From IMG/VR virus record IMGVR_UViG_3300044621_001273, positions 1 through 60,015 of that record: a stretch of 60,015 bases of DNA. One strand, given 5' to 3'. Of the stretch, positions 383 through 54,477 are shown in pieces. The DNA is from a virus. Taxonomy: Duplodnaviria > Caudoviricetes. The notes below the pieces were generated by a model, which did no database searches, had not been told where the DNA came from, and saw nothing but the letters and a program-made list of their open reading frames with translations. The position numbers were made by a program, and so were the translations under genes. Every line of letters starts with the position of its first letter. Positions within the stretch are counted from its first letter, which is position 1.

Positions 383-2002
383 CTAGTATCCAAAAACTTT
401 CGATGCTGGAGCGAAGCCGCTCTGCCCCGATGTATTAGTGTCAAAGATGTTTTTACTCCTCGGTCTTGACATTACACCATATCTCAATGCGTCATATCCG
501 TGATCAAAGTTGATGTTGGTGTCAATGTCCTCTGGATTCTTCTTATCTAGAGGTATTGTTGGTAGTTCAGCAATAGTTTTAACACAGTTGCTGAAAAAGA
601 CAATACGCGGACGCTCTGTGAAGGAATCTATCTGAAGACGTCTATGTATTTCGTTCTTACCAGACACTCTACTACCAGCACTTCTGTCAGAAGGACGCCA
701 ACGACACCCCTTCATTATCATTCTTTCAGCAATGGAAGGGCCTGTGTCGCCTCTTTTATGCCATGTAGAGCTGTCTAGAACACCATAACGTATCTTTTCA
801 CCGTCTTCAGCGTTCAACACCATCTCTGCCAAGTCTTCTGCAAGCACTTTAGTGACATATAACTCTCTATATACCACTAATGACTCATCTGGAGCTACAG
901 CAAACCACAAAACAGCAGACCAGCTTCCATATCCGTAGTCACAGGCTCTAAATCTAGGCCAATCATGAGGAATGTCATAGGAATCAACAACATGAACGCT
1001 TCTCTTAAACTCAGGAAACGCGGCACCTTCAGCAACATCCCAATCACCATCAAGAAGTTGACGACGTTGTTGCTCCGGAAGCGACAACAACATGGTTTCG
1101 TAGTCGCCTGAGGCAGCAAGATAGGGGTTGTCAGAGAGCCTTGAAGGGATGAAACGCCGCTTAAACAACGGCAGACCTTCTTTGCTGTGTCCTTTGGGGT
1201 AACGCAACACTTCACCAGTGTCAATGTCTGTTGCCCAGAAGGCTTGACCAGGTGGTGCAGGGTCAATGAACATCTTCTTAACCCACCCATGACCAGCATT
1301 GCCTGGGTTAGTCGTTGCTCTCATGTAAACAGGCAGGTCAGACGCTGCTGTTCTGAGGCGAGAACGCATATAGTTCCACGCAAAAGGCGTAGACCATTGG
1401 CTGAGTTCGTCAAAACCAACCCAAACGAAGCTCAAACCCTGATATCTAAGAACGTCTTCGTCTCTGTCGAGGTATGACATCCAAAGACGCCCGCCGCTAG
1501 GCGACACCCATTGCATCTTTCTCTCACTCCAAACAATACCTGGAATGATTTTTGGGTAGAGTTCTTGACTTTTCCAGATGAGTTCTCTCAACTCTTCCGT
1601 TGTATGACGCAACAGAAGCCCTGAAAACTGTGGATGAGAGATGTAACGAAGAGGATCTGCCAAGATGGCATAGCTCTTCCCACCACCTGCGGCTCCCCCA
1701 AACAACACTTCCCTCTCAGCAGCAGCTAGGAAGGCTGTCTGAGGGCCTGGATTGGGTGTGAAGACAACATTTTGTTCCTTTACTTCCTCAGGAACATCAA
1801 GTGTGTAAGAGCTTAGCTCCTTTGTCTTTGATGGAGACGTAATAATCTGAGGCGAAGAAATTGGTTTTTTCTTCTTTGCCGAGCCTGTCTTCGTACCTCT
1901 CGATGGCTTCGAGCGCTTCTTTGTATCTGCGGGCAAGGGATCGATAGTAGTTATGACGTTTTCCCCGTTCCTGTTCTCTACGTATGCGTTGTCGTAAACC
2001 AT
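383..2002 (-). CDS. terL: Terminase large subunit (true start uncertain)
   Basis: Walker A GGAAGGGKS, Walker B VGFDE, motif III RATTNPG, RNase H-like nuclease motifs ACDYGY and DHGYDALRY; directly upstream of the portal. Confidence 0.95.
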   Translation of the reverse strand: MVYDNAYVENRNGENVITTIDPLPADTKKRSKPSRGTKTGSAKKKKPISSPQIITSPSKTKELSSYTLDVPEEVKEQNVVFTPNPGPQTAFLAAAEREVLFGGAAGGGKSYAILADPLRYISHPQFSGLLLRHTTEELRELIWKSQELYPKIIPGIVWSERKMQWVSPSGGRLWMSYLDRDEDVLRYQGLSFVWVGFDELSQWSTPFAWNYMRSRLRTAASDLPVYMRATTNPGNAGHGWVKKMFIDPAPPGQAFWATDIDTGEVLRYPKGHSKEGLPLFKRRFIPSRLSDNPYLAASGDYETMLLSLPEQQRRQLLDGDWDVAEGAAFPEFKRSVHVVDSYDIPHDWPRFRACDYGYGSWSAVLWFAVAPDESLVVYRELYVTKVLAEDLAEMVLNAEDGEKIRYGVLDSSTWHKRGDTGPSIAERMIMKGCRWRPSDRSAGSRVSGKNEIHRRLQIDSFTERPRIVFFSNCVKTIAELPTIPLDKKNPEDIDTNINFDHGYDALRYGVMSRPRSKNIFDTNTSGQSGFAPASKVFGY

Positions 2003-31385: not shown

Positions 31386-31462
31386 GCGTCCATAGCTCAA
31401 CTGGATAGAGCAACGCCCTTCTAAGGCGTAGGTTGTAGGTTCGATTCCTACTGGATGCGCCA
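31386..31462 (+). tRNA. trnR: tRNA-Arg (UCU)
   Basis: Cloverleaf; anticodon arm ACGCC-CTTCTAA-GGCGT; T-loop TTCGATT; encoded CCA. Confidence 0.95.
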
Positions 31463-31464
31463 AA

Positions 31465-31547
31465 GCTGGAGTCGCATAGCGGCAATTGCAACGGTTTTGT
31501 AAGCCGTCGGGAAACCTTCATGAGTTCGAGTCTCATCTCCAGCACCA
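31465..31547 (+). tRNA. trnT: tRNA-Thr (UGU) with an extended variable arm
   Basis: Acceptor GCTGGAG/CTCCAGC-ACCA; anticodon arm ACGGT-TTTGTAA-GCCGT; 12-nt variable region. Confidence 0.85.
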
Positions 31548-31553
31548 ACAACA

Positions 31554-31639
31554 GCGGCTGTGGTGGAATTGGTAGACACAGCAGACTTAAAATCTGCCAG
31601 CATTAAGCTGTACCGGTTCGACTCCGGTTAGCCGCACCA
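31554..31639 (+). tRNA. trnL: tRNA-Leu (UAA)
   Basis: Anticodon arm GCAGA-CTTAAAA-TCTGC; long variable arm; ACCA end. Confidence 0.95.
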
Positions 31640-44511: not shown

Positions 44512-45806
44512 CTCAAGCCTACATAGGCTCTTCGTTCACTAGAAGATGTTGTTCTATCGGAAGTGACATAGACAATGCGTTGTTGAGCATCAACAGACAC
44601 TCTTCTTGTGTCTCTACCGTCAACATACACTTTTCTTGTTTGACCATCAATGTAGGTCTTTCTTTCATCTTTAGAGCCTACATAGACAGTGCGTAGTCTT
44701 TCATACAGCTCTTTAACAGCTTCATAGTCAAAGGAGGTGTTGACTACTGCTTCATTACCTAGCGCTGTAGTGCCTACAACACCAGCAGCAAATACCTGAG
44801 CCTTGGCAATGACAATGACGGTTTGAACGAATGCTGTAGCGCTCACGCCTACAACATCGAAGCTGGCGTTGGTGATGAAGTCTACATCGCCTACAACGCC
44901 TGTAGCGCTTACACCAACAGCACTAACATTGGCTGTGGTGTTTACTGTCTCATCACCTAAGGACGTTGTAGCGCTAACACCTGTTGTCGTTGCTGTGATG
45001 GGAATGGACGCAACAGCAGTGCCTAAGGAGATGGTAGCGCTAACACCAGTGACGCTGATGTTGGCATTGGTGCTGTGGTCTACGTCTCCAATGCTTCCAT
45101 TGAGGATGTTGCCATTGGGATAGGCATTAGCATCAGCAGTGACAACTTCGTTGCCTAATGTTGTTGTAGCGCTAACGCCTGTGACATCAACAACAGCATC
45201 TGCTGTGACAACAACAGAGCCTACAGCGCTTGTGGTACTAACGCCTGTGGCGCTTACGTTAGCAACACCAGCAACAACAACAGAGCCTACAGAGGCTATG
45301 GTGCTGACGCCAGTGACGTCTACAACAGCCTTAGCAACAACAACTTCATCACCTAATGCTGCTGTAGCGCTAACACCTGTAACGTCTACAACAGCAGTGC
45401 CAGTGACAGCAACAGAGCCTGTAGCGCCTGTAGCGCTGACGCCTGTGACAGGAACGCTGACAAAGACAGCAGCAACAACAGAGCCTACAGAGGCTGTAGC
45501 GCTGACGCCTGTGACGTCTACGTTAGCGTCTGTGTTGACATCAACAGTGCCGACAGAAGCTGTAGCGCTGACGCCTGTGACAGGTACTGACGTTACAAAG
45601 ACAACAGTGACGCTACCAACAGCACCTGTGGCACTGACGCCTGTGACGTCTACAGAAATGCCTACATTGACGTTGACGTTACCAACAGAACCTGTAGCGC
45701 TGACACCAGTGGCATTGACGGTGACGGGGCTACCGCCACTGGCTTCAAAGAGCCAACCAAAGGAGCCGTTGTTGGTGCTATTATTACCAGCGTACCAGTT
45801 GCTCAT
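44508..45806 (-). CDS. Repeat-rich tail fibre/appendage protein
   Basis: About 15 repeats of ~22 aa (VTGVSATxxVG); charged C-terminus with RxVYV repeats. Confidence 0.7.
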   Translation of the reverse strand: MSNWYAGNNSTNNGSFGWLFEASGGSPVTVNATGVSATGSVGNVNVNVGISVDVTGVSATGAVGSVTVVFVTSVPVTGVSATASVGTVDVNTDANVDVTGVSATASVGSVVAAVFVSVPVTGVSATGATGSVAVTGTAVVDVTGVSATAALGDEVVVAKAVVDVTGVSTIASVGSVVVAGVANVSATGVSTTSAVGSVVVTADAVVDVTGVSATTTLGNEVVTADANAYPNGNILNGSIGDVDHSTNANISVTGVSATISLGTAVASIPITATTTGVSATTSLGDETVNTTANVSAVGVSATGVVGDVDFITNASFDVVGVSATAFVQTVIVIAKAQVFAAGVVGTTALGNEAVVNTSFDYEAVKELYERLRTVYVGSKDERKTYIDGQTRKVYVDGRDTRRVSVDAQQRIVYVTSDRTTSSSERRAYVGLS

Positions 45807-48800
45807 TAGTATGCCCTAACGCCTGTGATGGTGAGATAGTCAACATCGGCTGCTGTACCAGAGCCTGTGTGGACTAATGTGCATGGAGATGATGCAGAAG
45901 TCCCCGTCAGTGTCAACACTCTTCCAGCTTCACCAGTGGCAGTGAAGCTACCAACACGCTGTGTTGTTGTGCCGAAGGCGATGGTGGTGGCACCAGTGGC
46001 TTTGTAGGTGTTGGTGATGTTGGCGAAGGTGTTGTTGCCGCTGATGGTGAGAGTGCCTGCGCCGCCTTGGTTGAGGGTGATGTTGGTGTAGGCGATGCCG
46101 CCGCCAGCGAAGGTTTTGGCTGATGCAGAGGTGAGGCTGATGGTGCCTGTGCCTGTGACGGTGAGGTTGGTGGAGGTGGTGGCATCCCATGAAGTCCCGG
46201 CGTCAGTAACGGCACACAGACTAGAACCAATATTTAATGTTCTAACATCAGTGCCTGAAAGCCTCCAAACTGCTGATGTTATTGAATAATCATTTGTATT
46301 AAATGTTCCAGATGTAAGTGTTACGCCATTAAGTCCTTGCGTTGTAGTCAAAGAGTCAAGACAAGATACGCTACCAGATCGCGCATTTATAATGACACCT
46401 TGTGTGAATGTTTTTCCTGCGCTTGTAATAGTTTGACTTCCTCGCCCGGCAAACGTAAATGACCCGGAGTTGCTCAAGGTAGTACCTGTACCGTTAATCC
46501 AGTTCCCGTGAATAAACGGAGCTTGAGTACAAGCCAACGTCATCGTATTCGTCGTCCTAGCCGACATATCAATCGTGCCGATGTTGTAGGCTTGGTTGAT
46601 GGTAATGGTAGCGCCGCTGTTCAACCCCGTAGCTTCAAAGAAGCAGGTGTCTTGGGCAAGCGGGAAGTCGTTGATGTTTGGCGTGCCGCCGCTGCCTGTA
46701 GCCCAGCCCGTTGCAGACCAGTTGCCGCCAGCAGCAAGGTTCCAATACTTGTTCGCCGCAGCCGTGAACGTGATGCCGCTGTTGCCTTTGCAATCGCCAA
46801 TGCGCGTGCCCGTCGCTGGCGCTGCTACACCGGCTATGGTGATGTCTCTGAAGTCAACGTCGGTCAAGGACACAGCCGCGCAGGTGAGCGTGCGTGTGGT
46901 GCCGAGGGTGTCAGAGCAAACGAAGTGACGCATCGTGGCGTTGGTGCCTGCTGAGCAGGTGAGGGTGCCTGTGATGGTCTGGTCTGCTGTGACGCTGATG
47001 ACCTTCAAGCCAGCAGAGGTGATGCCGGTGAAGGACAGGTCGTTGAAGCTATTGGCTCCGTTGATGGTGACGGTGCCTGCGGATGTGTCAGTAAATGCGA
47101 CGTTATAGAAGGTTTTGCCATTTCCTGAAAAGGTTGGGTTGCTTCCAGTGCAGTTAATTTGCGCAGTTCCGGCAACAATCGTAAGATCAGCAGATGTAGT
47201 TTCCGTAGTTCCAAACGCAAATGCGCCACTACTACCAGAAGTCGTTATAGTCCCGGACCCAAAGTCAAAGGTTCTTATATTAGAAGAACTGCAGGTAATT
47301 CCCCCACATGTCAAATTGTACGTTACACAATCAAAAACTCCATTAACTAACGTAAAGCCCCCTACTGTGCTCAAATCTAAAGCACTACCCAACACCCATT
47401 CACACCCCACCCCATTCACCGTAATGGACGATGCCAACGTCACACCGTTTGTCGTCAACGTCAACCCAGACGTAGACCCAGACAGCGTGATAGCGCCTGT
47501 GTACGTCCTCGTCAGCCCTGTCGCAGGCAGCGTCACGTTGCCGTGAATACCAACAATAGCTGTGCTGCCTGCCAGCGTCACGTTGCCCACCAACGGGCCT
47601 GCAATGGTGAGGGCTTTGCAGCGAATGCCGCCAGTGACAGCATTCACCGTGGCTGTGTAGGCTGTGGCGTTGGACAGGCTGTCGAAGACAACATCATCAT
47701 GGCTTCTCGGCACAGACGCGCCTGAGCCTCCACCAGACCCTGTAGACCAACGAGCGGTGTCGCTCCAGTTGCCTGTGCCACCAACCCAGTAGCGCGTGCT
47801 GTCGGCTGGCTTGGCTGTGCGGTAGACAGGCGCTGCCGCTGTGCCTGTGCTGTTGGCACCGGCGTAGAACTCACCAGGGCTTGTGGCAGCAAAGCCAATG
47901 CTGCCCATGGCAAGGTAGTCAATGCTGTCTGTGCAAGCTCCAGCGAGGATGTGAGAATTGCCTGAACCAGTCAGCGTGACCACGTTACCCACCGTACCTG
48001 TAACCGTCCAAGCGCCAAAGGTCTGTGTGAATGCGCCAAGGGCGATGGTGTGGGCTACGGTCTTTGTTGAGGCAAGTTCGGTGAATTGGTTACTGTCGTT
48101 AATGGTAGTAGTAGATGTGCCCGTTGCGCCTCCAATGGTGAGTTTGTTGTAAGACAAAGCGCCGCCAGAAAATGTACGAGCAGTTGTGCTGGTATCAGAT
48201 AGAACGATGTTGGCTGTGCCTTTATAGAAAACGGGGGTTGCCGATATTTGCCATACGTTTCCAACACCTGACAAAGTCCAAGTACCAGAACCCATTTTTA
48301 GTGTAGATAGCACAGAAGTGTTTGAAAATAAACCTATCGTTACATTGTATGTAACCGCATCGAATACCCCTTGAAATAAACTTAATGTTCTAGTGGAGCC
48401 TATAATTAACGCATCACCAAGTTGCGTTGTGCTAAAAGGTTGGATAGAAATATTACAACCAAACGTAACTCCATTGCTGGTAATGGTCTGAGTGCCACGT
48501 TTGGCAAAAGTAATCGTGCCTACTGTGCTGGATGACGTAACCCCAGTGCCAAACTTCCAATCGCCGTAAACAAACGGAGTGTTGGTGCTGGTGGTGAGCG
48601 TCATCGCACTAGTCCGCAACGACGCATCAAACGTGCCGATGTTCCAAGCAGCATTGATTGTGATGGTGCCTGTGACGCTGCCAGCAGCTTCATCAAACAC
48701 CGCTGTGTCCTGCGCCAATGGGAAGTTGTTGATGTCAGGACTGCCACCAGAGGAAGGTGCCCAAGCTGTAGCAGACCAGTTCTGTGCTCCAGCAAGGTTC

Positions 48801-50845
48801 CAATAGACGGTCTTCGCCGCAGGGAAGGTGATGCCGCTGTTGCCGCCACAGTCGCCTGCACGGGTCGGAGAAGAGCCTGCTGCGGTGCCAGCAATGGTGA
48901 TGTCGCGGAAGTCGCAATCGTCGGCACTGAGCGTGCCGACTGTGAGGGTGCGGGTGGTGCCGAGGGTGTCAGAGCGGACGAAGATGCGACGGACGGCTGT
49001 GGCACCGGCGACGGTGAGGGTGCCGGTGATGGTTTGGTTTGCCGCAAAAGTGTATTGCATCAACCCCACCGAGGCAGGCGCGCTAATGGTTAGATTGTTA
49101 AAACTACCTGCAATACTTGAATTATTGCTGTGCTGAGCGCTACTAGTTCCTGTATAGGTTAAATTATACAGTGCTGCTCCTCCGGGGTTTATAGAAGTAC
49201 TCCCTGTTGCTGAAAAATTTATTTGTGAAGTACCTGCGTTAAAAGTAAGATTTGTTGGTGTTGTTAACGTTAATGGAGACGTACTATTCAACGTCACCGT
49301 ACTCGACCCCAGCAATATCGCCCTGACGTTGCTGTTAGATGAGGATACCTGCCCCCCGGTTACGTTGTAGTTTTTGGTGTCGAAGGTGCCGTTGGTTACT
49401 GTAAACGGATTATTAGAGCCGATATCAAGCGCGTCACCAAGCTCTACTGATCCGCCATAAGAATCGACCGTAAACGCTTGTGAAAATGTTTTACCAGCGC
49501 TTGTAATGACCTGCGTATTTCTCCCAGAGAATGTCAAAGCGCCTGAGTAGGACCGTGTCACCCCACTGCCAAACTCCCAATCACCATACACCGTATAAGC
49601 CGTCGATCCAGCCAACGTCATCGCATTTGTGCGCGTTGACATGTCAATAGTGCCAAAGTAAGGCACAGGCGCATCAAGCGTCACCGTAGCCGACGTATTC
49701 AACCCTGTGTTCTCGATGACAGCCGTGTCCTGCGCCAACGGGAAGTTGTCTGTGCTGACACCAGCACCAGAGCTTGCAGCCCAAGCGTTGGCAGACCAGT
49801 TGCCGCCAGCAGCCAAGTTCCAATACACCGTCTTGGGCGTGTCGAAGGTTATGCCTCTGCACCCGCGCAGGTCTCCAACACGAGTGCCGCTGATGGGCGC
49901 GGCTGTGCCGATGACGTAGATGTCTCGGAAGTCTGCGTCGGTCAGGCTCGGGGCTGAGTTGATGGTGAGGGTTTGGGCGATGCCGTAGGTGGCACTTCTG
50001 AACCAAACTCTGCGGTTGCCTGCGGTGCCCGTGGTGGAGAGGGTGCCGTTGATGGTTTGACGGGAGTCGAAGGTAAATGAACGGACGCCAGCCGCCGACG
50101 GCCCTGCAACCGATATATTATTAAACGTATTAACGCCAACAATATTGTGCGTAGAAGAAACAGTTGATGTGAAAGAAACATTATAAAATGTTACACCTAC
50201 ACTGCCGCCAGCCGCGCCCCCGCGCACTGAAGCTGCACTTCCCGTACAGATGATAGTGGATGTTCCAGCGTTAAATGTTAAATTTGTATTGTTTGTAAAT
50301 AGAACAGCCGTTATAATAGAACTTACACTTACTGTAGAAGACCCTAAATTTATAGTCCTAATATTGCTGTTATTGGACGCAAATTGAGTAGCTGTAACAT
50401 TGTAATCTGCTGTGCTAAATGTACCTGCAGTTACGATAATATCGTTTGAAGACGTCAGCGCATCCCCAAGCGTCACCGTAATACCTGCCCCGTTTATCGT
50501 CACCGACCCCAAGGTCTTACCCGCTGTCGTCAACGTCCCAGTTCCATTCAGCGTCAGCGTACCGCTGTACGTCACCGTCATCCCCGCCACAAGCGTAACG
50601 CTGCCAGATACGGTGATGGCTGCTGTTCCCGCCAACGTCCCCGTAAACCCTGTGCAATTGATGGACTTGGCACCGGTGTTTCCGCTGGAGATGGTGCAGG
50701 TGCCGGAGGAGGTGGCGTCAAAGAAAACGTCGTCAGCGCTTGTGGGAACGGCTGCGCCACCAGCGCCACCAACGGTATCAGCCCACTTCGTTCCAGCGGT
50801 GCCATCCCACGCGGCAGTTCCACCGCGCCAAAAACGATCTGCGAT
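45806..50845 (-). CDS. Giant five-module tail fibre / adhesin-like protein (about 1679 aa; apparent AUC start)
   Basis: Frame is open 70 codons upstream of the track start, to ATC-GCA-GAT-CGT-TTT-TGG with AAGGAG 7 nt upstream; ~340-aa modules start (Y/F)WxxxxGxW. Confidence 0.8.
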   Translation of the reverse strand: MADRFWRGGTAAWDGTAGTKWADTVGGAGGAAVPTSADDVFFDATSSGTCTISSGNTGAKSINCTGFTGTLAGTAAITVSGSVTLVAGMTVTYSGTLTLNGTGTLTTAGKTLGSVTINGAGITVTLGDALTSSNDIIVTAGTFSTADYNVTATQFASNNSNIRTINLGSSTVSVSSIITAVLFTNNTNLTFNAGTSTIICTGSAASVRGGAAGGSVGVTFYNVSFTSTVSSTHNIVGVNTFNNISVAGPSAAGVRSFTFDSRQTINGTLSTTGTAGNRRVWFRSATYGIAQTLTINSAPSLTDADFRDIYVIGTAAPISGTRVGDLRGCRGITFDTPKTVYWNLAAGGNWSANAWAASSGAGVSTDNFPLAQDTAVIENTGLNTSATVTLDAPVPYFGTIDMSTRTNAMTLAGSTAYTVYGDWEFGSGVTRSYSGALTFSGRNTQVITSAGKTFSQAFTVDSYGGSVELGDALDIGSNNPFTVTNGTFDTKNYNVTGGQVSSSNSNVRAILLGSSTVTLNSTSPLTLTTPTNLTFNAGTSQINFSATGSTSINPGGAALYNLTYTGTSSAQHSNNSSIAGSFNNLTISAPASVGLMQYTFAANQTITGTLTVAGATAVRRIFVRSDTLGTTRTLTVGTLSADDCDFRDITIAGTAAGSSPTRAGDCGGNSGITFPAAKTVYWNLAGAQNWSATAWAPSSGGSPDINNFPLAQDTAVFDEAAGSVTGTITINAAWNIGTFDASLRTSAMTLTTSTNTPFVYGDWKFGTGVTSSSTVGTITFAKRGTQTITSNGVTFGCNISIQPFSTTQLGDALIIGSTRTLSLFQGVFDAVTYNVTIGLFSNTSVLSTLKMGSGTWTLSGVGNVWQISATPVFYKGTANIVLSDTSTTARTFSGGALSYNKLTIGGATGTSTTTINDSNQFTELASTKTVAHTIALGAFTQTFGAWTVTGTVGNVVTLTGSGNSHILAGACTDSIDYLAMGSIGFAATSPGEFYAGANSTGTAAAPVYRTAKPADSTRYWVGGTGNWSDTARWSTGSGGGSGASVPRSHDDVVFDSLSNATAYTATVNAVTGGIRCKALTIAGPLVGNVTLAGSTAIVGIHGNVTLPATGLTRTYTGAITLSGSTSGLTLTTNGVTLASSITVNGVGCEWVLGSALDLSTVGGFTLVNGVFDCVTYNLTCGGITCSSSNIRTFDFGSGTITTSGSSGAFAFGTTETTSADLTIVAGTAQINCTGSNPTFSGNGKTFYNVAFTDTSAGTVTINGANSFNDLSFTGITSAGLKVISVTADQTITGTLTCSAGTNATMRHFVCSDTLGTTRTLTCAAVSLTDVDFRDITIAGVAAPATGTRIGDCKGNSGITFTAAANKYWNLAAGGNWSATGWATGSGGTPNINDFPLAQDTCFFEATGLNSGATITINQAYNIGTIDMSARTTNTMTLACTQAPFIHGNWINGTGTTLSNSGSFTFAGRGSQTITSAGKTFTQGVIINARSGSVSCLDSLTTTQGLNGVTLTSGTFNTNDYSITSAVWRLSGTDVRTLNIGSSLCAVTDAGTSWDATTSTNLTVTGTGTISLTSASAKTFAGGGIAYTNITLNQGGAGTLTISGNNTFANITNTYKATGATTIAFGTTTQRVGSFTATGEAGRVLTLTGTSASSPCTLVHTGSGTAADVDYLTITGVRAY

Positions 50846-50846
50846 T

Positions 50847-51557
50847 TTAGCTCTCCTTAAATCTCAATGCCTTGTGTCCATGCGTATCCAACTTTACATG
50901 GCAAGGCCGACAAACAGTTCTTCCGTTACTCACGTCATACCGAAGATCTGGAAAGGCACACCACGGTTTAATGTGATCTGCCTCTAAATACCCGCCCCGG
51001 GTGTTACAAATTTTACAACTCCAGTTATCTCTTACAAAGACCGCGTTTCGCCAGTCTCTATATGGGTACTGCGCCATCGCTGTTTTACGCTCTGATCTTA
51101 AGCCACCACGCCAATTCGGATGATCTGAACCGTGACGATAGTTTTGTCTTTGAAACTCAGAGATCTTTTTGCGAGTCTCGTCTGAATGCCCCCGTTTTTC
51201 TGGCGGTACTAGGTCAGGATGTCCTTTCGTAAACAAGCCTTTTAACTCTCGGCCGGCGTAGTAGCAAACCTTACTGCAAAACTTCTTGCGTCCAACTTGA
51301 TTGGGCTCAATTCTCATGTCAACGCCACAAGTCTTGCAGTTAATGTGAACTCCTTCTGTTTTGTTCCATGCGGGCCTGCCGTTCTTTATGCCTTTAAATG
51401 GTGACGGTTTACCTCGTAGTGCCTCGGCTGCTTTGGTAGCTCGAAGAGCGTAAGAACACTCCTTAGAACAAGTTGTCTGCCGCCCGTGCTTTAAGCGTCC
51501 CAAATCTGCAAAATAACTCTTATTGCAGATAGGACAAAGCCTTTCGACAGACTCCAT
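50847..51557 (-). CDS. Free-standing HNH homing endonuclease with Zn-finger and NUMOD-like segments
   Basis: CPIC..CSKEC, PAWNK, HSDETRKKIS, HPNWRGG, VFVRDNWSCKIC, ADHIKPW, NGRTVCRPCH. Confidence 0.9.
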   Translation of the reverse strand: MESVERLCPICNKSYFADLGRLKHGRQTTCSKECSYALRATKAAEALRGKPSPFKGIKNGRPAWNKTEGVHINCKTCGVDMRIEPNQVGRKKFCSKVCYYAGRELKGLFTKGHPDLVPPEKRGHSDETRKKISEFQRQNYRHGSDHPNWRGGLRSERKTAMAQYPYRDWRNAVFVRDNWSCKICNTRGGYLEADHIKPWCAFPDLRYDVSNGRTVCRPCHVKLDTHGHKALRFKES

Positions 51558-52882: not shown

Positions 52883-53666
52883 TTAGGCCACGTTGTACTT
52901 GGCCGTGGTCAGAGCCTCAGGACGCAAAATCTTGCGACCATAGAGGTGCATACCACGAACAATGTCAGCAAACGAGTCCGGATCGCGATAGGTCTCAGTC
53001 TTGTTGATCTGCTCAGCAGAGGCAACAGCGCTGTCGTGACCGGCAACGATGACACCGAAGTTGCTGTTCTGGTTAGCCGTGCCTGTCGTGCCTGGGCCAG
53101 TGCCAACCTTCGGCAGGTTGTTGCTGACATAGATCTTGAAGCCGTGCAGGTTGTTCAACAGAAGACCGTTTTGCAGACCAGAGCCACCGAAGTCTGCATT
53201 CAGAAGACGGCTGTCCTCGTCCTTCAGCACTTCAACGAACACCGGATCAACCACAAGCCAACGACCATTGGTGTCAACGTTTTGTTGATCCAACAGACGC
53301 GACATACGAGCAATGATCATCAACGGCGACACCAGATCAGTCGGCATCGTCGTGACCCCAGGCAGACGCGCTGCAATGGGAATCGAATGATCACCGGCGC
53401 TGGCTGTGGTGATGTTGCCAAACGAGCTCTTGATGAGCTTCATCGTCGTCAACAGTTCGTCGTTACCAGCAGTCGAAACAGCCTTCGTACCAGGGAAGGT
53501 AGTGCGGGCGGTGTCGGCGCTGCCATGCAACACAGACTGTTGATAACCAGCGAGGTAGCCGAGAACGTCTTGGTCGAACTGGTCCTTCAAGCGATAGGCA
53601 GCACGATCAGATGCCAAAGACATCCAATTGATGTGCGACTGAGTTGCTTCGATGTCGTCAACTTTA
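52883..53666 (-). CDS. Major capsid protein, exon 2
   Basis: (F)KVDDIEATQSHINWMSLASDRAAYRLKD...RDPDSFADIVRGMHLYGRKILRPEAL. Confidence 0.93.
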
Positions 53667-53960
53667 CCTTTATATTCAGCAAGGGTCGTTAATCCTTACC
53701 CGCTTTATTCAAGCTGCTGCATTTTTCAATGCAGAGTAGACTATATCATCACCCTGACTTATCAGGGGCTGGGCGCTTCCGCTCACTTGAGCGTATGGAT
53801 TTCATCTCCCCGTAGGGCGGTATATCCTAGTCGTTGAACCTTCAAAGACCTTTCGGTCTATGCTTGGCTGCTGATTGCCTTAGCTATTATGCCTTAGGTT
53901 TTCCAGCAATTAACCCAGTTATTTAGATGAGATTACTCTCAAATGCGTCTGTTAGTGTTA
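53667..53960 (-). ncRNA. Group I self-splicing intron (subgroup IA-like, 294 nt, no ORF)
   Basis: P AATTGCTGGAAAA (53911-53899), Q AATCAGCAGCC, R GTTCAACGACTA, S GATGATATAGTCT; P1 GCGUU/GACGC with U.G at the splice site; terminal G; splicing restores the frame. Confidence 0.93.
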
Positions 53961-54247
53961 AACGCGAAGTAGTTGGCCTTATCGACAACCAGCGTGAAAT
54001 CGCTGTCATCAAGGTCTTGAGCCGTCACTTGAGTGCCGCGTGCATAAGCCTGAACGCTGACCTCGGGCTCCTTAACGATCTTAACTGAGTCCCCCATGCT
54101 GGAGATTTCTCCGAAATATTCGGAGTTGGTGATCGCTTGAGCGACCGAAGATTTCCTAAACGCGAGTTGTACTTTTTTACTGTAGATAATTGGCGACCAA
54201 TTACCATTTTGGAGGCTTGTATAGCCCGAAGCTGATGCAAACGCCAT
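53961..54247 (-). CDS. Major capsid protein, exon 1
   Basis: AAGGAG SD; MAFASASGY...NWSPIIYSKKVQLAFRK...YFGEI...VDKANYFA; spliced product 356 aa. Confidence 0.93.
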
Positions 54248-54446
54248 TTGATTTCTCCTTAATAATGGCTAACGTATCTCCTTATTCTTTCGGGTCTATT
54301 TGCATTAGGTGGTCACAAACATGTCTCTATAGCAACATGCTCAGTAACGGCTAAGCTCCTAGAGTGTACGACGAACATCGTTCAATACGACACAAGATGT
54401 AGAGCATCTTCGTTGGTGTTGTTACACGGGAAGATGCTGCTACTAC

Positions 54447-54475
54447 GTTAAATCACAATTTCACTCCAATGTCAA
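54447..54475 (-). promoter_or_regulatory. Sigma-70-like capsid promoter followed by a ~190-nt leader
   Basis: TTGACA-N17-TTTAAC with extended TG. Confidence 0.6.
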
Positions 54476-54477
54476 CA

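Follow-up and report, generated by a model that had tools for sequence, protein, structure and literature searches.

A group I intron without an open reading frame in the single major capsid gene of a freshwater podovirus, and its probable recent spread among related capsid alleles

The capsid locus and its splice borders

In this paper we describe the major capsid gene of a freshwater (lake-water) phage, an HMO-2011-type podovirus. The window, that is the whole stretch of DNA analysed, is one virus record of 60,015 bases that CheckV rates as 100% complete. The capsid gene lies on the minus strand in two parts separated by 294 nt, and the features of the region are the following.

50847..51557, minus strand: free-standing HNH endonuclease gene, 236 aa (Pfam HNH PF01844, 27.5 bits against a cut-off of 21.4; phrog_1271, E 3.5e-14)
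52883..53666, minus strand: capsid exon 2, third base of codon 96 to the stop codon (phrog_267, PF25209, tblastn)
53667..53960, minus strand: group I intron, 294 nt, phase 2, ORF-less (RF00028, mapped helices, pair covariation, relatives)
53939..53941, minus strand: in-frame TGA at intron bases 20-22, directly 3' of the guide sequence; ends unspliced translation at 102 aa
53961..54247, minus strand: capsid exon 1, codons 1-95 and the first two bases of codon 96 (Phe) (phrog_267, coat-protein alignment)
54248..54477, minus strand: 230-nt spacer between a scaffold-like gene and the capsid gene, of a type that recurs only in the related contig L086 (97.8%)

Read without splicing, the gene yields an ORF of 102 aa (54247..53939), as an earlier note on this DNA had predicted from the letters alone. 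The two parts of the gene match complementary halves of the same protein family. Residues 15-96 of the exon 1 ORF match positions 38-116 of the phrog_267 major head protein profile (E 7.6e-15), and the exon 2 frame, which is open from 53695 to 52883, matches positions 117-324 starting at its residue 11 (E 2.1e-43). A search with this profile at the level of the genome covers positions 28-116 and 117-326, and the two halves abut at 116|117, which is the predicted junction. The Pfam family PF25209 (Phage_capsid_4) matches exon 2 alone, with 30.1 bits against a cut-off of 27, and the ten best tblastn matches (H31-H40) all begin at query residue 11, which is Lys97, right after the junction.

Joining 54247..53961 to 53666..52883 gives a protein of 356 aa that aligns without gaps to the coat proteins of MW202701 and HMO-2011. 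With these gapless alignments and the abutting profile halves, the junction ...ANYFAF|KVDDIE... and the 356-aa product that the earlier note had proposed prove to be exact. The insertion site falls within the highly conserved capsid motif N-Y-F-A-F|K-V-D-D-I. Among cultured phages and complete genomes the nearest are Puniceispirillum phage HMO-2011, the Roseobacter CRP phages and a Manatee Spring podovirus. Their coat proteins are 61-79% identical to that of the window, and in the annotation their coat genes stand as one CDS each, without interruption. We also considered an alternative 3' splice site at 53694, where the only other G in frame lies, and rejected it because it would add nine residues (LTTLAEYKG) that are absent from all relatives.

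Neither a second capsid gene nor a second copy of the intron is found in the 60,015-base, 100%-complete genome. Capsid production must therefore depend on splicing, a dependence that had been proposed before and that the single capsid gene of a complete genome bears out.

Ribozyme identity and structure

When the window is scanned with all Rfam families, four matches exceed the curated thresholds, three of them tRNAs and the fourth a group I intron. The model RF00028 (Intron_gpI) matches 53970..53717 on the minus strand with 92.7 bits (gathering threshold 50, E 1.5e-22) and is covered from position 1 to 253 of its 253 positions. This is the only RF00028 match in the 60,015 bases, and the genome is otherwise intron-free. 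The elements mapped onto the intron are listed here, all on the minus strand.

53945..53965: P1, exon end GCGUU (53965-53961) with guide sequence GACGC (53949-53945) (fold, CM)
53941-53928: P2 (minimum-energy fold)
53918-13 with 53774-69: P3, CUGGGU/GCCCAG (fold, CM alignment)
53908-03 with 53874-69: P4 (minimum-energy fold)
53898-53878: P5 (minimum-energy fold)
53868-53838: P6 (minimum-energy fold)
53739..53832: P7, GACUA (53832-28) with UAGUC (53743-39), enclosing two extra hairpins, P3' and P8
53827-53797 and 53793-53780: the two extra hairpins, of P7.1/P7.2 type, between P7 and P3' (fold)
53767-53752: P8, CCCUGA/UCAGGG (fold, CM)
53734-53717: P9, CUGCAUU-GAAA-AAUGCAG (fold, CM)
53667: terminal G of the intron, 3' splice site (sequence, spliced-protein alignment)

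The earlier reading of this sequence as a full group I catalytic core is thus confirmed by the covariance model over its whole length, and the helices P1, P3, P7, P7.1/P7.2, P8 and P9 and the terminal G all lie in the fold and the model alignment where that reading had placed them. It had also called the intron ORF-less, and besides the read-through from exon 1 we find no sense-strand ORF of at least 40 aa in it. P1 has the form GCGUU(U)/(A)GACGC and pairs 53965-53960 with 53950-53945; in it U53961, the base with which exon 1 ends, forms a U.G wobble. The minimum-energy fold contains two more hairpins in the 3' part of the intron, and inspection by eye revealed no convincing P10 pairing. The fold energy is -92.7 kcal/mol against a mean of -74.3 kcal/mol for dinucleotide shuffles (z -3.56), and none of the 100 shuffles is as good.

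The two hairpins between P7 and P3' appear as a 50-nt insertion in the Rfam alignment. Such extra P7.1/P7.2 hairpins are said to be the mark of subgroup IA, as Michel and Westhof are reported to have described in 1990. We suggest that the intron is probably IA-like, a class read from these hairpins.

Further support for the structure comes from two sibling introns in the capsid gene of a related locus, L081. In an alignment of only three sequences, the window intron and these two siblings, 29 of the 74 consensus pairs show compensatory, both-sided change. P3, P7 and P9 are compensated across the three introns, and both L081 introns have the compensatory change GACCA/UGGUC in P7. The splice-site U.G is conserved in all three, and the P1 pairs next to it (columns 15-20/28-33) co-vary with the exon of each intron.

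Evidence from RNA contigs

Six metatranscriptome runs contain parts of the stretch, and we compared assembled contigs from three of them (X15, X16 and X19) and from an independent DNA run, X4. Among the runs X1-X14 the shares of sampled words range from 0.74 to 1.00, a hint that many lake metagenomes may contain the allele with the intron; of these runs only X4 was aligned to the stretch, and we base no claim on the others.

In run X15 a contig of 211 nt lies on 53483-53663 and then on 53958-53987, skipping 294 nt with three ambiguous bases and one mismatch in 211. The length and place of the skip are those of the predicted excision of 53960..53667. The shorter side of this contig covers only 27-30 nt, below our 31-nt bridging rule, and the library may contain DNA. 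Another contig of the same run has exon 1 joined to the intron, and a 1157-nt contig of the DNA run X4 passes through the intron with no mismatch and no joint. The X15 contig could equally stem from a rare DNA allele that lacks the intron and has the same flanks. However, the 30-nt junction sequence of the window is found in none of the 82 intron-less DNA alleles of relatives that we compared, which all differ from it at three or more positions, and this makes such an explanation less likely. We therefore take the contig as a hint of splicing, and it is from this one weak RNA contig that we infer splicing in vivo.

Other RNA contigs touch the same region. The contigs of run X16 end at 53659 and resume at 54028, leaving the intron uncovered and giving no joint. 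A 1322-nt intron-less contig of run X19 was considered as spliced RNA and rejected; it belongs to a diverged allele, in which three synonymous changes around the insertion point would break P1, and is best read as a naturally intron-less gene. The depth of exon 1 in X15 (18.2) is about the sum of the intron path (10.9) and the joined path (7.6), as at a fork in an assembly graph, but with depths in single figures we give this no weight. A 781-nt contig of the RNA run X15 also holds a variant of the intron with 555 extra letters in the P5 loop, inserted at 53882-53893, which is absent from the 2 + 3 loci that exact-pattern scans found among viral and metagenome contigs.

Might the intron nevertheless be catalytically dead, and the gene broken or made as two polypeptides? 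Exon 2 does contain an ATG-initiated ORF of 246 aa (53623..52883) from which a second polypeptide could come. But the core is complete and scores 92.7 bits, and six contigs, which come from different samples, have kept the intron essentially as it is. The complete genome has a single capsid gene, and all relatives encode one polypeptide. One RNA contig with exact excision also speaks against a dead intron, and we regard this explanation as extremely improbable.

We suggest instead that the intron is functional and that splicing would follow the usual group I course. The late transcript would fold into the ribozyme, and exogenous guanosine would attack after the U of the P1 U.G pair (53961). 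The freed exon 1 would then attack after the terminal G (53667), and the ligated mRNA would be translated into the 356-aa coat protein, while unspliced RNA would give only the 102-aa stub.

Distribution of the codon-96 intron

For the distribution of the intron we compared 82 capsid loci, the best 80 of at least 599 related IMG/VR loci and two annotated relatives. In 77 of them the capsid protein gives one colinear full-length match, three are cut by a contig end yet cover codon 96, and two are interrupted elsewhere. An insertion at codon 96 is found in none of these 82 more distant alleles, which represent the best 80 of at least 599 loci plus the two annotated relatives. Exact-pattern scans added five further contigs that have this intron in the identical position, the viral contigs L084 and L085 and the metagenome contigs L086-L088, where it scores 92.5-93.2 bits each with RF00028. 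The distribution is thus sporadic.

The window intron is identical to those of the five other contigs at 292-294 of 294 positions (99.3-100%), whereas their exons are 86.8-97.2% identical to those of the window, with a divergence of 8.7-19.4% at third codon positions. Across all six intron-bearing contigs the identity is 83.6-95.5% in exon 1 and 90.7-99.3% in exon 2. Even with only a quarter of the intron sites free to vary, the probability of seeing 0-2 intron differences is at most 4e-3. The groupings of the contigs by exon 1, by exon 2 and by the type of nuclease cassette upstream are mutually incongruent, so that the region is a mosaic. The near-identity of the intron among diverged exons therefore argues for recent horizontal spread, and points to a codon-96 intron that has recently moved or recombined across diverged capsid backgrounds. 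The six intron-bearing contigs are each other's closest relatives, and part of the distribution thus reflects shared descent.

We consider it highly probable that the element is a functional, ORF-less, IA-like group I intron which behaves as a selfish mobile element in a single capsid gene and has recently spread at the DNA level. It gives the phage no known benefit and would persist because only its exact removal keeps the capsid gene working. The most plausible route for its spread among diverged capsid alleles in lake phage populations would be repair or recombination during co-infection, with the help of a nuclease acting in trans.

The earlier note had raised the idea that splicing could link head assembly to host nucleotide status. 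Guanosine-dependent splicing would then be a regulatory valve which tunes capsid synthesis to the GTP or translation status of the host. This is speculation. Capsid production here does depend entirely on splicing, and the in-frame stop at 20-22 nt into the intron sits right beside the guide sequence, so that ribosome traffic could affect the folding of P1. Condition-dependent splicing of phage introns is also discussed in print, in PMC10914365, which cites Sandegren & Sjoberg 2007 and Belfort 2017. Against a valve, none of the 82 more distant relatives carries the intron and yet they make the same protein, which means that the intron is dispensable for the lineage. Its distribution is that of a selfish element, and the intron sequence revealed no feature specific to sensing. 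Moreover, the guanosine that group I ribozymes require is generally far exceeded by cellular GTP. We hold a regulatory role to be very improbable, and return to the intron as a selfish element in what follows.

Other introns in the same capsid gene

The capsid gene of this clade is interrupted at several places. The gene of L081 holds two ORF-less group I introns of 247 and 265 nt (90.6 and 88.6 bits), one inside codon 55 and the other between codons 106 and 107. When both are cut out at U|...G borders, a colinear protein of 357 aa results. The second L081 intron is 71% identical to the window intron, and all three introns can be aligned. In L066 and L086 an insertion of about 920 nt lies near codon 44. 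It gives sub-threshold Rfam matches of 36.9 and 40.7 bits (E 3e-6 and 2e-7) and encodes a LAGLIDADG-type protein of 241 and 245 aa, respectively (phrog_11023, E 1.6e-13). There are hence at least four intron sites in the capsid gene of this clade, at codons ~44, 55, 96 and 106.

Nuclease genes and the route of spread

The intron has no endonuclease ORF inside it, as an autonomous mobile group I intron would have. An ORF-less intron accompanied by a free-standing endonuclease is known from cyanophage psbA, from a T7-like phage and from mobE/nrdB of T4. This raises the question of which nuclease might act on the codon-96 site.

The HNH gene at 50847..51557 had been put forward in the earlier note as the nearest candidate. 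It would cut intron-less capsid alleles in trans and repair would copy the intron in. The gene is real, a bona fide HNH by its PF01844 match with several HNH PHROGs matched, and a weak NUMOD3 motif recalls homing enzymes. It stands free, in the orientation of the late genes, and none of the related loci sampled contains it, which makes it a sporadic insertion itself. Both trans homing and collaborative homing are established concepts (PMC2988022, PMC3984707). As a mobiliser of this intron the HNH gene finds no support, however. It lies four genes and, as noted before, 2.1 kb away from the insertion site. A search of 87 related loci and of three fragmentary records from relatives gave no homologue; since the five loci with the intron extend only about 1 kb beyond the capsid gene and stop before the corresponding position, an absence does not follow for these five. 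The HNH is also unrelated to the nuclease that intron-bearing relatives have next to the capsid gene. Phage HNH genes of the free-standing type usually act close to where they are inserted themselves, which we count against it as well. A role of the window's own HNH in moving the intron seems very improbable to us.

A better candidate for a nuclease acting in trans is found upstream of the capsid gene in relatives. In L084, L085, L087 and L088 a cassette of about 700 nt takes the place of about 180 nt of the spacer that separates the scaffold-like gene from the capsid gene. It encodes an endonuclease VII/HNH-like protein of 192-201 aa directly upstream of the capsid gene (phrog_1035, E 5e-30 and 1.5e-32). 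The protein has two allelic forms, with only 37% identity between them, and no Pfam family above threshold, the only Pfam match being a sub-threshold, zinc-finger-like one. A homologue with 38% identity lies at the same place in the intron-less MW202701. The nuclease gene is present in four of the six intron-bearing contigs against one of 70 loci that lack the intron and include the spacer. The Fisher p of 5.7e-5 makes the association look stronger than it is, since the contigs are related. The intron-less relatives are too diverged to tell whether the cassette was gained or the spacer of the window type arose by its loss.

A free-standing nuclease close to the capsid gene, as expected for collaborative or trans homing, is present in L084, L085, L087 and L088. 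The 230-nt spacer of the window lacks this gene, and so does that of L086. The link between nuclease and intron is a loose one, because the window and L086 have the intron without the nuclease and MW202701 has the nuclease homologue without the intron. We propose that this endonuclease VII/HNH-like nuclease of the relatives may have helped the spread in trans. As the genome of the window is without it, the intron would be a passenger here. Both the route of mobility and the nuclease involved are what we infer from these patterns.

It is also conceivable that the intron spreads without any dedicated nuclease, by homologous recombination in co-infected cells, and reaches new sites by reverse splicing, reverse transcription and recombination. 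The window and L086 would fit such a process, having the intron and no adjacent nuclease gene, and the capsid region is strongly mosaic. Furthermore, three related ORF-less introns are found at codons 55, 96 and 106, and the guide sequence of each fits the site where it sits. In rDNA, such a multi-site pattern is cited as circumstantial evidence for reverse splicing (PMC3984707). On the other hand, the intron remains at least 99.3% identical where the exons differ by as much as 16%, which suggests that something stronger than passive recombination drives it, and the upstream nuclease is enriched in the intron-bearing contigs. We see spread without a nuclease as possible, if on the unlikely side, and prefer spread with the help of a nuclease.

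The sibling introns lead to a broader hypothesis, which is tentative and in our judgement rather unlikely. The capsid gene might be an active arena of intron traffic, in which one ORF-less family would occupy codons 55, 96 and 106 (a span of about 155 nt) with its guide sequences re-tuned to each exon. The codon-96 copy would be sweeping through alleles that differ by at most 16%, driven in trans by the upstream endonuclease VII/HNH-like gene, in a state of collaborative homing before fusion. If this were true, the gene would hold a natural record of ectopic intron transposition within a protein-coding phage gene, and the RNA-library variant with the 555-letter insertion in its P5 loop could be a fused, autonomous form of the intron.

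Comparison with known introns

The earlier note had placed the phage group I introns reported so far mostly in genes for DNA metabolism, terminase and lysin. Taken as a premise that none had been described from capsid genes, this is wrong, as published examples show. In the Cluster J mycobacteriophage LittleE (Pope et al. 2013), splicing of a capsid-gene intron has been proven by RT-PCR and N-terminal sequencing according to PMC3706429, which also cites a capsid intron in the lactococcal phage Tuc2009. Yutin et al. 2021 (PMC7886860) describe crAss-like phages of the Delta and Zeta groups whose MCP genes contain group I introns. Homing endonuclease genes have furthermore been reported to cluster near capsid genes (PMC10448857).

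LittleE, as described in that paper, resembles the window in several respects. In both, a tailed phage has an intron in its major capsid gene (probably of group I in LittleE), and only some close relatives share it. In both, the exon before the intron ends in U, the intron itself ends in G and free-standing HNH genes lie nearby. The LittleE intron differs in having 820 bp and a putative homing endonuclease ORF, whereas that of the window has 294 nt and no ORF, comes from an uncultured freshwater podovirus and has weak support from RNA. The crAss-like Delta and Zeta phages, as far as their published description goes, share with the clade of the window that they derive from metagenomes, that group I introns split the MCP gene and that the capsid gene is interrupted at several sites across the clade. 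Their introns were recognised through endonuclease domains and belong to intron-dense genomes of gut phages, while the window has a single ORF-less intron in another lineage and habitat.

The nearest sequence relatives of the intron in cultured phages are 69-78% identical over 40-72% of its length and share its core and architecture. They are found in genes for N4-like RNA polymerase (ZC08, pYD6-A), thyX (Alteromonas phage AD45-P1), DNA polymerase (PhAPEC5/7) and terL (Vibrio phage qdvp001). These IA-type relatives thus differ from the window intron in the genes that they interrupt, and many carry or adjoin annotated HNH or GIY-YIG ORFs. None of the 386 matching cultured-phage records covers at least 80% of the window intron. 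One paper on HMO-2011 and introns, which treats a possible DNA polymerase intron in other phages, makes no mention of this capsid intron in its passages on the subject.

As in the systems for which collaborative or trans homing is described in these sources, the intron here is far more conserved than the exons. That the codon-96 intron belongs among collaborative homing pairs is a hypothesis, for the window has no such nuclease and a homologue occurs in a relative that lacks the intron.

Implications for HMO-2011-type phages

Since capsid-gene introns have already been published, the intron of the window is a well-supported further example of them and not a new kind, and the current understanding of group I introns is unchanged by these findings. 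The intron also matters for annotation. HMO-2011-type phages are abundant in aquatic viromes, and where the intron goes unrecognised the capsid gene looks like two fragments, of 102 and 246 aa. To judge from its sequence, the locus would be a clean case of an essential and very highly expressed structural gene that relies on ribozyme splicing. It may also offer a compact natural system in which the spread of ORF-less introns through uncultured phage populations can be followed, with a near-identical intron across alleles, sibling introns nearby, an intron that bears a LAGLIDADG gene and two divergent alleles of a free-standing nuclease.

Other introns in related capsid genes

The related capsid locus L081 carries two group I introns, neither of which contains an ORF:

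L081:2027-2273, first ORF-less group I intron of the capsid gene, within codon 55
L081:2428-2692, second ORF-less group I intron of the capsid gene, between codons 106 and 107

Of the two, the second has 71% identity to the window intron, its insertion point lies 30 nt downstream of the window intron's site, and its guide sequence fits its own exon. A further group I intron of about 920 nt, with Rfam scores below threshold, is found at capsid codon ~44 in two related loci:

L066:~849-1769, group I intron at capsid codon ~44
L086:~667-1583, reverse strand, group I intron at capsid codon ~44

It encodes a LAGLIDADG-type ORF of 241 or 245 aa, and in the L086 capsid gene it is present together with the codon-96 intron.

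Other features of the window

Three further features of the window are:

31386-31636, plus strand, cluster of three tRNA genes (70.6, 53.2 and 56.6 bits)
45806-50635, minus strand, 1609-aa ORF
53652-53837, plus strand, 61-aa ORF antisense to the intron

The second and third tRNA genes have long variable regions. The 1609-aa ORF consists of long internal repeats that are rich in Thr, Gly and Ser. It lies where HMO-2011 carries tail-fibre-like genes and probably encodes a tail fibre or spike. The antisense ORF is probably spurious: its presence in L084-L086 merely follows from the near-identity of the intron in those loci.

Free-standing nuclease genes and exon 1

Free-standing nuclease genes of two kinds were found:

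L085:969-1574, endonuclease VII/HNH-like gene
L084:1851-1273, reverse strand, endonuclease VII/HNH-like gene
L087 and L088:~1016-1573, endonuclease VII/HNH-like gene
L001:4027-4596, endonuclease VII/HNH-like gene (another related capsid locus)
Window 50847-51557, minus strand, HNH endonuclease gene

The window HNH gene starts 3 nt past the end of the preceding small gene and has homologues in none of the 87 related loci, which points to a sporadic insertion in this genome. The endonuclease VII/HNH-like gene sits in the spacer that separates the scaffold-like gene from the capsid gene, and exists in two allelic forms with a mutual identity of only 37%; neither the window nor L086 carries it. 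When the window is compared with L084-L088, the loci that share the codon-96 intron, divergence is highest in exon 1 (window 53961-54247; pairwise identity 83.6-95.5%), which is flanked by the site of this nuclease gene on one side and by the intron on the other. In these six sequences exon 1 groups differently from both exon 2 and the nuclease type, and this discordance suggests a local recombination hot spot around exon 1.

An enlarged intron variant in an RNA library

Among the contigs of the metatranscriptome run X15 is one of 781 nt that agrees with exon 1 and the intron to within 0-1 mismatches, except that 555 other letters take the place of the 12 bases at the tip of the P5 hairpin (window 53882-53893, minus strand). 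Exact-pattern scans of viral and metagenome contig collections returned no occurrence of this variant. It may represent an ORF-bearing, autonomous version of the codon-96 intron.
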